A stretch of DNA of 64,000 bases from Eledone cirrhosa (GCA_964016885.1 OZ024740.1:89404001-89468000); one strand, 5' to 3'. Positions 3,062 to 58,890 are shown, counted from the first letter of the stretch. The notes: generated by a model not told the origin, from the sequence alone. Numbers and translations: made by a program.

Positions 3062-3126
3062 TATTTTGTCTGATGAAATCACATCATAATTTAACGTGGT
3101 GTCCTTGAAATATGTATTATAAAATA
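3062..3126 (+). ncRNA. Type I hammerhead ribozyme motif (family A)
   Basis: TATTTTGT-CTGATGA(3070)-stem II ACATCAT/GTGGTGT-GAAA(3107)-near-palindromic stem III ATATGTAT-T-ATAAAATA. Stem I is 8 bp with one G-U pair. Cleavage triplet AUU. Confidence 0.65.
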
Positions 3127-3273
3127 AATATGGTTTTATAAATATAGTTTCCATTTGTTAATATCGTATATATATATATATATATATATATATATATATA
3201 TATATATGTGTGTGTGTGTGTCTGTGTGTGTGTGTGTATTTAAAAAAATAGAGGTATGACACACGAGTTGTGA

Positions 3274-5305
3274 TATATTAGTAAAAAGGAAAAGAAAATG
3301 CTGACACATTTTTCCCAGTGAAAAATAGTTTAATTAGGAATAAGTATAAATTAGTAATAAGAATTGGTTAGTATTCAGTTTTAGTTTTAAGTTTTTACCG
3401 GATGCGCATTTCTAATGCTTTTCAAAAATAATTTTGAGATAGAGCGCTCGTGATGTTTGCTTTAATCTGATCAGTTTTGGAAATTCTTCCTGTTTTATGT
3501 GAAAAAAGTGGCTCCAGAGGTATTAAGATTTGGTTGGTTGTTGAATGTCACGTGAATAAGTACTATAAATTTCAGGCCAATTCGTGGTGCAAAAATTCTT
3601 GTAGTCAAAGCAATTTTGATTGGCTGGTAGAGGTCACGTGAATGTTAAAAATTGATTTTAGCGCGAACTGGGTTGGCCCCAAATGTAGGTTTGTCGAAGA
3701 GTGTCCTTTTTCGCTTGATTGAGTTGCAGTCATGTTGAGAAGTCACTAAAAAACATGTCTATTAATACAAATGTGTGTGTGTGTGTGTGTATATATATAT
3801 ATATATATATATATATGTGTGGGTGTGTGTGTGTGTGTGTGTGTGTGTGTAGCAGTGTGGTTCGTGGTAGAGGGAATGAATCGGTAAGTAGGAATGTGTG
3901 TGTACGTATGTGGGGGGTATTTTAACATATTGAAACATATTTTCCAGCTCCTGTCTTATACGGAAAAGTGTGTGTGTGTGTATGTGTGTGTGTGTGTGTG
4001 TGTGTGTGTGTGTGTGTGTGTGTGTGTGTGTGTGTGTGTATGTCTGTATGTTAGTGTATGCGTGTGTATGTGTGTGTGTGTATGTGTGTGTATATATATA
4101 TATATATATATATATGTGTGTGTGTGTGGATGGACCAGAATGTTTGTGATACTGGTAAAAATGGTGTACATTATTCGATATTTTCAGTCATTTGCAAAAA
4201 CGATTCTCTCAAAGGAAGATCAAAATAAATAATAATAAAAGAGGTGAAATGATGTATACTATTGTCATAACACAAAGCTGTGTGTGAGTGTCCAGATTAT
4301 ACGTACTGCAAGGGGAATCCATTAGGCCCTGTTGTATGGGATACTTGTGTACAAATATGGGTGTTCCCATCAATGTGCCATACATGTGTGCGTATGTGTA
4401 TGTGTGTGTGTCGGCACGTTTATATCTATAAACATCAAAATGTTTGCAAATTTGTGTATATTTGGGTTGCACCATAGGACATGTGTGTTTACGTATGTCA
4501 TTGTATTTATATGTGGCTAGAAATGTATGTAGGATGTATGCTGATATAGGTATGTATGTTGACGTGTGTATGTTGTGGGTTCGTCTTAGGGAGAAGTGTT
4601 TAGATGGGGTCAGTATTTGTTAATAACGTGAGATTCCTTGCTGATGCGCTGGGTGTTTGTAGAGGGGAAAGATTCTAAAGTTGGGATGATTTTGGGCGGC
4701 ACAATGTCAATGTGTTCACTCAGAGGTAATTTTCTGTATTCCCGTATTTTAATTTGGGATCTATGGATAGTCAGGCGTTGGCGGAGGCTGTTTTTCATCT
4801 GGCCTATGTATTGTTCTCGACAACCTGAGCATGTTAATACATATATTAGATTTTAAGATGCGCATGTGAAATTGTGTTTTACTATAATACGTTGTCCTCT
4901 TTGAAATAGAATTCCAAACCCTCTAATAGGTTGATACATATGCCAGAGTTGGGTCTATCCCATTTCTTTACTGTGGGTTTCGTTGTTGTGGTTGGCAGTA
5001 TTTTGACATGTGTTTGCATGTTTTACATTCACTTAGACTGTCTTTTGCTCTTTATGATATCGTCTGTTCGAAGGATTTGCTTCATTCTATGGTCCTTTTT
5101 TAATACAGGAATGTTCTGGATGATGGTGTCAAAGGCCTCATTGTTGAGGGGTATTTTGAAAAGCATTAGAAATTCGCAACCGGTAAAAACTTAAAACTAA
5201 AACTGAATACTAACCAATACTTATTACTAATTAATACTTATTCCTAATTAAACTATTTTTCACTGGAAAATATTTGTCAGCATTTTCTTTTCTTTTTACT
5301 AATAT
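3274..5305 (-). mobile_element. 5'-truncated Penelope-like element (PLE; Neptune-like GIY-YIG remnant) bounded by ~155-bp inverted pseudo-LTRs (pLTRs)
   Basis: Minus strand reads IYVLTCSGCREQYIGQMKNSLRQRLTIHRSQI (about 4750-4850). 3274-3430 is the near reverse complement of 5152-5305. The element has (TA)n/(TG)n tracts on both sides. Confidence 0.75.
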
Positions 5306-5459
5306 ATATATATATATATATATATATATATATATATATATATGTATGTATATATATATATATATATATATATATATATATATATATATATATATATATA
5401 TAAATATATATATATATATATATATATGTGTGTGTGTGTGTGTGTGTGTGTGTATAGTA

Positions 5460-5600
5460 ATAATAATACATTTGAAGACTAAAATGCAAAGAGGGCTCGC
5501 TAGGGGATAAATATATATCAAATATATAAGAACCGTAGAGCAAATATTTATTAAAATAACAGATTAAAGTTTAAGCAAAGCATCGCTGCTTTCACCGTTA
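5460..5600 (-). repeat. Fragment of family D Penelope-like pLTR
   Basis: Reverse complement matches 26685-26825 and 52565-52710. It is truncated inside hammerhead stem II. Confidence 0.75.
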
Positions 5601-55700: not shown

Positions 55701-57009
55701 CATCTAAGTGTCGTTTTGTTTACCTAAATACTTTCCTCTTCTATTCTCTTTACTCCATTCTTTATTTATTTCCAGCAAATGAAGTATTTCAAGCTGATTG
55801 ATGTTCAACTGGCATTCCACTTCAAACTGGTTGATGGTTGAATGCTATTGATTCGACGTCTGTTATAAAGAAATCTCTATTGACAGAACTGTATAACTTA
55901 ACTAACAATACTGAATTTGTGTGATTCCAGATTTGATTTAACAAGCGTAAATTCCGTTAGACTCATCTCATGATGCTGCTGCCTAGAAAAGTAGCTTTCT
56001 GTTTGATTTACGCCGAGGATAAAACTAAGTATATAGGGAATCATTTGATTTATCTATTTATCTATCTATCTTTTTTGTTTGTTTGTTTGGCGTATGTTAC
56101 TACACAATACTATAGATTTAAGAACTTTTTTTTCATTATTTTCTTTTTTTTTTGCTGTCTTATCTGACAGAGAAGAAATATACAAATCAGGATTTTCACG
56201 TAGAATGAAAATAATTGTCTTCGTTAATCTTCCTGATGGTATTGACAGGATATTAAATAAATAAATACAAAATAAGAACCATTATTTATAACTAGATAAC
56301 GACCAAAGAAATATGTTTATTTAATTTACCACGAAATAAATTCATTACATCTTTCTATGAGTTATTTCAATAATTTTCCATATGTCGTTTATTTCTCTTT
56401 ACTCCTGAAAATCTATTAAAGTTGAAAAAAGTTGAGGATTATTGTTTCAGAAATGTATCTTGTTTTCACCGTGGATTTTTCTTACAACTTATAGTTGAAT
56501 ATATGTTTAGAATACAATGATTATGAACATTCTAAAACGAAAAGGAACATTTGTACGAAATTTAAACAATATATTATTTTTAGAGTTTATATATGAGTGT
56601 GTATTTGTTTGTCTACATGCTGGCGCAACCGCCTGTATGTGTGTGCATGTGTACGTGTATGTGTACGAAGTGAGAAGAGAAATCCGAAACATGCCGGCGT
56701 TTCAGTAGCTGTATTTACGGAGTTGAGTTGGGAATGATAGTATTCCGGTGATGAGAAACAGTTAATTTATTGCTCGACACCACATTAGATATCTATGTTT
56801 TAGCAAGTAGACGAATATGAAAAGAAAAATTGGCAATGCCGATGATGCTTGAAACGCCCAAATGAGGAAGGCTAGCGTGTGTCAAAACGATAGTTTTACC
56901 TCAGAGATTTTCAAACAATGCAAATACCTTTAGAAATTCTTAGATTTATGTGTACATTTTGAGATATCGTGTGGGTATGAGTTGGTGTACGCATGTGTGG
57001 AGATCATGC

Positions 57010-57190
57010 ATTGGCAGTATTGGTAGAGGGTCCAACGCAGTGCTTTCCAGCATAGAGTTACGCCCCTTTATGATGTGAGTTCAAATCCCGCCGAGGTTAA
57101 CTTTGCGTTTCATCCTTACGGGGTCGATAAAATACAGTACCAGTAATACACTGAGATAATTGCTGACCTTGCGCCAATAGTAGAACCATT
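57010..57190 (+). mobile_element. Cephalopod tRNA-derived SINE
   Basis: Colinear match to 59441-59628. Confidence 0.85.
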
Positions 57191-58554
57191 TATTTCTTAA
57201 TGGTTGTGGTGGTGGTGATGTGATTGTTTGCTTGAATTCATCATCAGTGTGTGTGATGCTGTGTGTGATCCAATCACAAAGTGGATGTAGGTGCGTGAAT
57301 GTTTCATTTCATATGTGTGTATGGTTGTGGGCATGTTGGGTTGTATGTCATGTTTACATGCGTCTGTATGTCATGTGTATCTGTGTACCTCTACACCTAA
57401 TCTAGCACTCGCCTACATAAATAGCTTTACCTATTTAAATGTGGACAACGACCGCAAACCCTTCATGCAACATACATACGCAACTAAGAAAATAACATAG
57501 GCCCTTACAGTGTATAATCAATTATTAATTAACTATTCTACCTATTCACTGTAGAACTATGAAATAAAATCACCACTACAAACTCAGTAGTACACCGAAA
57601 CCTGGATATCAGAAATAAATCAAGCTTTGACAGCTAATCGTATCTGTAGGGACTTAAGTTTCAGAGTAATTATAGCTAATTAATTATACTATATATTAAC
57701 CCATTTAGCAGCGGTTAATTGACCACGTATGTATCATTTTATACTTAATTATTTAATCTATCTTTTATATTTGTGATTTAAATAGAAATTTTATTTTCGA
57801 TTCCATCCCTGCAATCGTTATCTACAACTTAACTTTAACATTTTTCTCCTCAAAGTCTCGTGTTCCCTCTAAAATCAAAAAAATTGTGATTTGTGAACAA
57901 GGCTTATATCCAGATTACAATCAGCCCAATTTAGAAAGCACACTCATATATGTACGTATATCTTTTATTTATATATATAAATAACAGATATAATCCTTAC
58001 CGTGCCCTCTTCGGATTTTAATCTTGACATTTTTTATATTATTATTATATATATATATATACATACAAACACACACGCATATGTATATATATACATATAT
58101 GCAAAATTAGGTAGTAACATGGGATTATGCCGTATTGACTAAGCAGTATAAGTCTGTTAGCTGGGGTTTAAAAAAACAATCCCTGAATGGAAAAAAGTTG
58201 AGTATTGACGTATATGGGACACGAACCGAATTCTCTAGTTTGCCGGAACAATGCGTTACCATTACACCAATATGCCATATATATATATATATATATATAT
58301 GTATATGTATATATATATATATATATATGTATATATATATATATATATATATATATATATATATATATATATATATATATATATATATATATATATATAT
58401 ATATTTTATTTAGGTTTGAAGGTCCACCACTGGATAGAGCTGGTCAATTCCGTATGGTCAATCTTGATGCAATAATATGGAGAGTACTCAACGTAAAGCA
58501 TCTCAACCGTCTTCGTTTGTGTAGTTGGTGGTACGATTACGGAGTTAAATATTA

Positions 58555-58890
58555 TAATAAAATAATAGGAGGGTGGACTTGTGTAAATCCTTGAAAGGTT
58601 TATTATACTATGATCATTTCAATGACCGGGTTCCGTATGAATCCGGTGATATCATCAGGTATTGGAAATTGAGGGCGACCGGCTAAAGTGGAAGATGCTA
58701 GATGGTCGGTCGTCCTCGGGTCTATAACTTTCAGCCCCATGGATTTTATCTGTTACATTCATTTATTATATTTCGAATACCTGATGATAACATCGGATTC
58801 ATACGGAACCCGGTCATTGAAATGATCATAGTACAATAAAGCTTTCAAGGATTTACACAAGTCCAGCCCCCCATTAATTTATTAAAATTA
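58555..58890. repeat. Inverted pLTR pair (family C) within (TA)n
   Basis: 58574-58668 is the reverse complement of 58771-58865. Confidence 0.88.
58778..58833 (+). ncRNA. Type I hammerhead (family C); inverted copy at 58606-58661
   Basis: TAC-CTGATGA(58781)-stem II-GAAA(58819)-TGATCA-TA-GTA. Palindromic stem III ATGATCAT. Confidence 0.78.

Follow-up and report, generated by a model that had tools for sequence, protein, structure and literature searches.

Type I hammerhead motifs in (TA)n-inserted repeats of Eledone cirrhosa and their probable origin in Hydra-clade Penelope-like elements

Background

What are the hammerhead ribozyme motifs that recur between the (TA)n tracts of a stretch of the Eledone cirrhosa genome, what carries them, and would they cut host RNA? 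The stretch comprises 64,000 nucleotides (GCA_964016885.1 OZ024740.1:89404001-89468000); it is called the window below, and positions are counted from its first letter. It has a GC content of 38%, abundant (TA)n and other microsatellites, and dense remnants of long interspersed nuclear elements and Penelope-like elements (PLEs). An earlier note had described a hidden set of about 15 hammerhead families in about 27 copies, had assigned them to a very diverse Penelope-like radiation concentrated at (TA)n, and had proposed that read-through transcripts could be cut on both strands. The set of hammerhead-shaped motifs is real and was well described. Judging from the sequence, we consider it about 85% probable that the motifs are type I hammerheads located at the 3' ends of repeats inserted in (TA)n, that three of the families are tails of Hydra-clade PLEs and the rest likely tails or non-coding derivatives, and that solo and inverted stubs are, as predicted, largely silent.

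Identification of the hammerhead motifs

The earlier note had listed 16 sites, and all are present with the complete order of stem I, core, stem II, GAAA, stem III, UH and returning strand of stem I. Fifteen were parsed in scans, among them 34289, which was recovered by a separate scan tolerating a damaged GAAA; the site at 58778 has no scan parse of its own but is a 94% copy of the parsed site at 58605. A strict descriptor, in which the CUGANGA core is fixed and the first stem II pair left free, gave 11 matches in the window. Local dinucleotide shuffling, done 30 times, left 0.07 matches on average, and the reversed sequence had none. An extended descriptor, which also admits U3:A8, variants at position 4 and a long stem II, gave 20 matches compared to 0.3 in shuffles (at most 2). 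A descriptor demanding the 10.1-11.1 pair found a single site in the window and is too strict for the Hydra clade. Rfam reported no hammerhead in the window at E<=1, just microRNA matches driven by microsatellites. Permuted hammerheads (SGC, CSG or GCS) gave no match in the window, and their descriptor, whose sensitivity is unproven, had no excess in 1.11 Mb either. The strict match at 42135-42277 was rejected as a chimera, a (TA)n tract linking halves that derive from two distinct repeats; also rejected were the CTGANGA words at 44565 and 53793, which have neither homologues in the fetched loci nor a hammerhead parse.

The repeats were mapped by masked self-BLAST, because microsatellites otherwise swamp the repeat search, and a BLAST census with one representative per family yielded 15 families with 29 near-complete copies and three fragments. 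Grouped in this way, the 16 sites of the earlier note represent 14 families (30083 belongs with 42897, and 25616 with 58778), and the fifteenth, F15 (45810-45917, minus), was absent from that list. Seventeen of the 29 copies have a canonical core, three have U3:A8, two U4A and one U4C, and six are damaged, including the listed site 34289 (G12 to U). All seven stem III palindromes that had been named were located in the window.

Carrier elements

Three PLE coding remnants lie within the window. They are listed here together with the hammerhead families tied to such coding sequence; pLTR stands for pseudo-long terminal repeat and UTR for untranslated region.

26856-31216, plus: Hydra-clade PLE, 5'-truncated and frameshifted, with an inverted terminal copy (26856-27104), a coding remnant (26970-29183), a 3' UTR with nested F5 and F6 insertions, and a 3' pLTR with F7
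26903-27063, minus: F7 hammerhead, inverted copy
31013-31163, plus: F7 hammerhead with a stem II domain of ~115 nt, stem III ACGATCGT; 3' pLTR ribozyme of the PLE 26856-31216
50011-52713, plus: second Hydra-clade PLE, with an inverted copy (50011-50499), a coding remnant (50508-51583) and then a 3' UTR
52551-52599, plus: F4 hammerhead in the 3' UTR of the second PLE
26668-26718, plus: F4 hammerhead, U4A core (CAGAAGA), 6-pair monomer stem III
46577-46638, minus: F4 copy, A15.1 to C
5564-5615, minus: F4 copy, decayed
26247-26279, minus: F4 fragment
24550-24589, minus, and 24600-24636, plus: F2 inverted pair, 2-bp stem II, within the fold-back 24521-24666
35455-37671, minus: decayed Hydra-clade PLE coding remnant with RWK, DKT and CxCX5C visible; own 3' pLTR not identified

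A search with the reverse transcriptase (RT) piece at 27236-27877 brings up 28,769 candidates across the 3.0-Gb genome; identity is 89% or more in all of the 150 that were scored, and their open frames reach 866 codons. F7 is present in both pLTRs, sense to an intact open reading frame (ORF), in at least two loci (L090 and L091), and further long copies have it in the same orientation as the ORF, in terminal copies that are direct or inverted. In the window element 26856-31216 the terminal duplicate is inverted, and internal (TA)n tracts hold nested F5 and F6 insertions. For F4, the distance to a Hydra endonuclease upstream of it in the same sense is about 1 kb, both in the window and in L191, L204 and L206; L207 has the same arrangement across a deletion. 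The F4 motif was found in 19 of 20 fetched coding copies of the second Hydra family (that of the element 50011-52713), and one locus, L249, has an intact ORF of 705 aa with the U4A motif downstream. A Hydra-like endonuclease match is followed in sense orientation, after 221 bp, by a relative of F2 (L032), and another endonuclease match, after 884 bp, by an F1-like motif.

By motif inspection, P0001 and the L249 ORF each are a single ORF in which an RT is joined to a C-terminal GIY-YIG, with DKT, CxCX5C and CxxC/CxH; the RWK motif reads RWR in both. The Atlas neighbours are cnidarian, ctenophore and mollusc proteins, and GIY-YIG appears in some of their clusters. Pfam and PDB searches gave no match for P0001, and Pfam called neither RT nor GIY-YIG in the nine PLE pieces among 15 ORFs of the window. 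The endonuclease is C-terminal rather than N-terminal, which speaks against the Naiad clade. F7, F4 and F2 are the families tied to Hydra-clade PLE coding sequence, F7 and F4 with intact ORFs elsewhere. The Penelope-like origin proposed earlier is supported and narrowed to the Hydra clade, with coding links in these three families, and is likely for the rest.

Two details of these elements were seen in addition. The 3' UTR at 29159-29388 contains tandem repeats of ~113 bp that duplicate the ORF end and carry CTGATGA without a complete hammerhead, and the repeat number varies among copies. At the 3' side, F4 ends either about 25 or about 125 nt past the predicted cut.

A likely life cycle that would produce such structures is the following. 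The RT/GIY-YIG protein of the element would nick (TA)n and copy the RNA from its 3' end, as suggested by the enzymology described in PMC8557442. Copying would mostly halt early, so that the ribozyme-bearing tail would be the part deposited most often, alone, in tandem or as a head-to-head inversion, the structures seen in the DNA. Within a complete element, the hammerheads of the two pLTRs, which have the same sense, would use the stem III palindrome to pair, and each would cleave the UH site of the other, which would free the element RNA (PMC4209133, PMC6765202).

Conservation of the fold and variants of the core

Core statistics were taken from 1.67 Mb of fetched DNA, a sample enriched for the families of the window. 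It contains 206 canonical matches compared to 1 after shuffling. Stem III is a perfect loopless palindrome in 149 of them, the dimer type that the earlier note had recognised; stem II is opened by U.U or C.A in 122, and at N17 there are 160 matches with A, 38 with U and 8 with C. The U3:A8 pair occurs in 15 matches of eight sequence types, two of which look spurious, while a change at position 3 alone is seen in just 4 scattered matches and one at position 8 alone in 3. Relatives of F7 and of F13 bear the alternative 3:8 pair. In 34 homologues of F1, gathered by sequence similarity alone, 95% of the cells are paired; both sides changed in 8 of 21 pairs, a value reached in none of 500 shuffles, although the score is inflated by relatedness. 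The recurrent double changes from C3:G8 to U3:A8 and the stem II covariation point to selection on the catalytic fold in the master elements.

Two families deviate at core position 4 as a whole. Among the 18,547 genome-wide matches of F4 just 181 have a base other than A there (A in 99%), and these spread over G, T and C like background mutation. C4 is present in 99 of 100 among the matches listed for F14 (5,058 matches in total). U4C lowers activity yet suffices for a viroid (PMC3088659). For a natural U4A no text was found in the literature, where earlier surveys may already list position-4 variants. The CAGAAGA core turned up in one other case, an unrelated hammerhead whose stem III spans 8 bp (L002:292-370, minus).

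Further regularities concern the surroundings of the motifs. Inversions of F6 favour a hot spot: the cores of its head-to-head pairs are 4-17 nt apart in 15 pairs among the first 100 matches listed, and the inversion junction thus lies within or beside the 5' strand of stem I. Of 100 distinct hammerheads, 21 have an RCTC-N10-20-GAGY hairpin motif in the 200 nt on their downstream side, compared to 4 upstream and 1.5 expected from shuffles; in the window it lies at about 42968-42990.

Abundance in the genome and association with (TA)n

In 39 arbitrarily chosen 10-kb stretches there were 26 strict matches compared to 0-2 in shuffles. With the extended descriptor 105 matches were counted in 1.11 Mb, which extrapolates to about 284,000 genome-wide (bootstrap 206,000-371,000); ten doubtful TTGAAAA matches from an AT-rich satellite (L052) were dropped from this density and retained in the tallies of families and (TA)n distances. 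Exact patterns searched in the whole genome gave 72,435 matches for F1-like motifs, with a few double counts (control 10), and 26,475, 18,547 and 5,058 for F6, F4 and F14 (controls 0). The sum of 122,515 is a floor for the genome. A looser genome-wide pattern counted the same sites several times and was set aside.

At 80% identity the 1.11 Mb sample holds 42 families, in agreement with the very diverse radiation claimed earlier; 29 of them were seen once, and the Chao1 estimate of about 100 is rough and inflated by these singletons. The motif density in the window is about 2.5 times that of the 39 stretches, and the window is ordinary for the genome. The concentration at (TA)n was also borne out: the median distance from the cut site to the next (TA)5 is 129 nt compared to 572 nt for random positions, and a (TA)5 lies within 200 nt downstream in 74% of 120 matches compared to 26% of random positions. 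The window itself has fewer (TA)n tracts per kb (58 in 64 kb) than the sampled stretches (955 in 390 kb). The four largest chromosomes are poorer in motifs, with 11 in 14 stretches (L021-L034) compared to 31 in 25 (L035-L059).

Other families of the window

The remaining hammerheads of the window are the following.

3062-3127, plus: F1 type I hammerhead, canonical core, decayed stem II; member of the largest superfamily
25616-25671, minus: F3 hammerhead, stem III ATGATCAT
58605-58662, minus, and about 58778-58835, plus: F3 inverted pair in the fold-back 58551-58888
29928-29965, plus (intact), and 29810-29856, minus (A14 to C): F5 U3:A8 pair in the 295-bp palindrome 29743-30037
31643-31678, plus; 3394-3427, minus (decayed); 5154-5187, plus (decayed): further F5 copies
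30079-30139, minus: F6 hammerhead flanked by (TA)n tracts
42897-42945, plus: F6 hammerhead, with a head-to-head fragment at 42861-42902, minus
31832-33363, plus: F8 tandem of ~638-bp units, hammerheads at 32390-32475 (3' strand of stem I damaged) and 33031-33110
33455-33510, minus: F9 hammerhead, stem III ATATATAT
34289-34373, plus: F10 hammerhead copy, G12 to U; an intact relative is in L187
34458-35431: F11 inverted insertion, stem III ACTGTACAGT, hammerheads at 34683-34760, minus, and 35127-35204, plus
42527-42604, minus: F12 hammerhead, stem III ACCATGGT
45291-45330, plus: F13 hammerhead; its ~320-bp unit lies between (TA)n tracts and has 67% similarity to the 310-bp tandem array of L135; U3:A8 occurs in relatives
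45810-45917, minus: F15 U3:A8 hammerhead with a long stem III; fragment at 46331-46361, plus
47502-47556, minus: F14 hammerhead, U4C core (CCGAAGA), stem III ACAATTGT

Several results weigh against our explanation for these families. Eleven of the 15 families (F3, F5, F6, F8-F15) have no coding link in the sampled loci, the link of F1 comes from one distant relative, and neither an endonuclease nor an RT match was found within 1.5 kb in 20 F3 loci. A Hydra protein was matched in just 6 of 119 sampled stretches. Covariation is modest in F9 (3 of 19 pairs; 62 of 500 shuffles) and weak in F6 (1 of 12 pairs). The 5' ends of copies do not cluster at the cut site: in a noisy test, 5 of 304 lie within 3 nt of it. 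The behaviour of the motifs in genes, in contrast, agrees with silent stubs; the spans between collinear myosin and dynein exon matches served here as an in vivo proxy. In 30 genes (660 kb) 27 sense and 33 antisense motifs were counted (p=0.52), thus no sense depletion, and with one uncertain gene (C3) added the numbers are 28 and 35. The insertion units, C3 included, comprise 16 sense and 19 antisense solo units and 11 inverted pairs. Gene spans and arbitrary stretches overlap in motif density, with 0.088/kb in the former and 0.108/kb in the latter. Because sense copies are not depleted and the densities overlap, strong selection against sense copies is not seen, in a test of modest power that is compatible with mild depletion. 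Cleavage may be tolerated through co-transcriptional splicing, and the counts suggest that essential genes tolerate sense-strand intronic hammerheads.

The explanation that competes best sees in most families retrozyme-type elements that are not autonomous and use the Hydra machinery as parasites, via circular RNAs, instead of truncated tails of coding elements. This is possible, although we do not favour it for the majority, and it is compatible with our explanation for some families. F8 consists of 2.4 tandem units of 638 bp, one with a damaged ribozyme, and has no similarity to a Hydra ORF; it would thus be retrozyme-like. F13 is a ~320-bp (TA)n-bounded unit and kin to a 310-bp tandem array, Hydra coding sequence is present in few sampled stretches, and such an origin has been proposed (PMC7229834, bioRxiv 10.64898/2026.07.22.740005). 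However, F4, F7 and F2 are tied to coding sequence, and heavy 5' truncation by itself predicts a large excess of tails. The array just mentioned (L135:4932-6971), a distant relative of F13, has six hammerhead copies antisense and one sense in a myosin gene span.

It is unlikely that the ribozymes are largely vestigial passengers and that the elements spread whether they cut or not. Such a view would account for the more than 18,000 copies of F4 with A at core position 4, which include a copy with an intact ORF, for the about 5,000 copies of F14 with C4, and for the missing 5'-end peak at the cut site, and PMC8557442 raises hammerheads as possible parasites of PLEs. Against it stand the covariation of stem II and the repeated C3:G8 to U3:A8 double changes, which also separate relatives of F7 and F13, and U4C is active enough in a viroid (PMC3088659).

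Would read-through RNA be cut?

Under the dimer model, cleavage takes two copies of the same sense (PMC4209133, PMC6765202). Within one molecule, no more than 1-3 pairs can form in a stem III that is a palindrome without a loop, and close same-sense pairs exist in the window for F8 and F5 only. Five inverted pairs of the window are predicted to fold back on themselves, with 76-98% of their bases paired and -55 to -611 kcal/mol. The predicted probabilities of the active fold in monomers are all <=0.002, in a calculation without an active-ribozyme control. Since a same-sense partner is absent, the solo and inverted stubs, which are most of the copies in the window, should by prediction mostly stay silent when present in host transcripts.

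Active stubs that cut host read-through RNA on either strand and thereby shape the transcriptome are, in contrast, quite improbable. A canonical or U3:A8 core is kept in 20 of 29 copies, monomers of F6, F8 and F15 could form 4-9 stem III pairs, high-copy families could meet partners in trans, and motifs do occur sense in gene spans, where L135 even has a six-copy same-strand tandem, which is antisense to its gene. Yet stem III is a loopless palindrome in most canonical matches, inverted pairs fold back, gene spans are without strand bias, and a lone minimal PLE hammerhead did not cleave while dimers did so at a low level (PMC4209133). The earlier proposal of cleavage on both strands is therefore not upheld.

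That all these are chance matches in AT-rich, palindrome-rich repeat DNA has practically no probability left, because the shuffle and reversed-pattern controls are near zero (0-10 compared to 5,058-72,435 for the whole-genome patterns), even though Rfam found none, one strict match was a chimera and the satellite L052 gave ten doubtful matches.

Other repeats of the window

Fold-back palindromes without a parsed hammerhead are found at 1952-2278, 25968-26147, 33662-33805, 48441-48537, 59257-59438 and 46228-46506 and are probably shorter inverted stubs. Decayed non-LTR retrotransposons cover 6911-10560, 10758-23130, 38934-41635 and 60706-64000. Pfam finds non-LTR RT with zf-RVT at 8728-10284 (plus) and 14676-16295 (minus), in several nested copies, and an endonuclease-RT element lies at 38934; all are classed at the level of Pfam.

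Significance

The class of motif is known, namely the Hydra-clade PLE hammerheads, while the members in the window are new and the scale is unusual. The set is hardly hidden, since Hydra-clade hammerheads, their (TA)n targeting and an octopus family have already been published (PMC8557442) and the window exceeds the sampled density only about 2.5 times. Tentatively, and at somewhat less than even odds, we would see here a Hydra-clade explosion with one hammerhead per ~10 kb and a total above any published count found, in which an ORF-bearing U4A family has passed 18,000 copies while the remaining fold was preserved; U4A would then be an active natural core not described before, or else a PLE can amplify massively without cutting. 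Either outcome, if true, would bear on the purpose of PLE hammerheads, and the amplification of F4 (U4A) and F14 (C4) is a natural test of whether PLE ribozymes must cut. One genome offers dozens of young families with canonical, U3:A8, U4C and U4A cores, stems III of monomer and dimer type, and intact ORFs, and thus a ready panel for asking whether retrotransposition needs cleavage. Standard annotation by Rfam and Pfam wholly overlooks this abundant class of repeats.

Comparison with known systems

For cephalopod hammerheads the literature search brought up PMC8557442 as the only relevant paper, and earlier surveys may hold cephalopod examples; PMC13282606 treats Penelope-like elements in an octopus, the word ribozyme being absent from its accessible text.

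The minimal PLE hammerheads of Cervera and de la Pena 2014 (PMC4209133) resemble those described here in their pLTR location, palindromic stem III and dimer model, in solo copies and opposite-strand pairs, in the U3:A8 variant and in their high diversity within a genome. They were counted at about 2,000-9,000 per genome compared to at least 122,515 exact matches here. Where they have a conserved G10.1-C11.1 pair and one more nucleotide behind A9, most motifs here have U.U or C.A instead, and the stems III here are palindromes of 6-10 nt or longer helices, unlike those of the minimal hammerheads.

Metazoan non-LTR retrozymes (PMC7229834, bioRxiv 10.64898/2026.07.22.740005), for which a PLE origin has been proposed, are short non-coding tandem type I units like F8 and the relatives of F13. 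Retrozymes are tandem, whereas most copies here are solo or inverted stubs. Axolotl retrozymes reach up to 120,000 copies, from two families (PMC7229834).

The closest likeness is to the Hydra-clade PLEs with a C-terminal endonuclease, including Hydra-1_Obim (Craig et al. 2021, PMC8557442), which share with the elements found here RWK/RWR, DKT, the CxCX5C linker, CxxC, CxH and the C-terminal GIY-YIG, as well as (TA)n insertion and direct and inverted pLTRs. Their hammerheads are likewise of type I, mostly with A or U at position 17 and a mismatch at the base of stem II (supplement of PMC8557442), and hammerhead function in endonuclease-bearing PLEs is stated to be unclear in the same paper. 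The clade was described from 27 families, one of them in octopus, whereas here a single RT query has 28,769 candidates. In the E. cirrhosa genome many ribozyme families coexist, and some of them have family-wide U4A, U4C and U3:A8 cores that do not appear in the table of PMC8557442.

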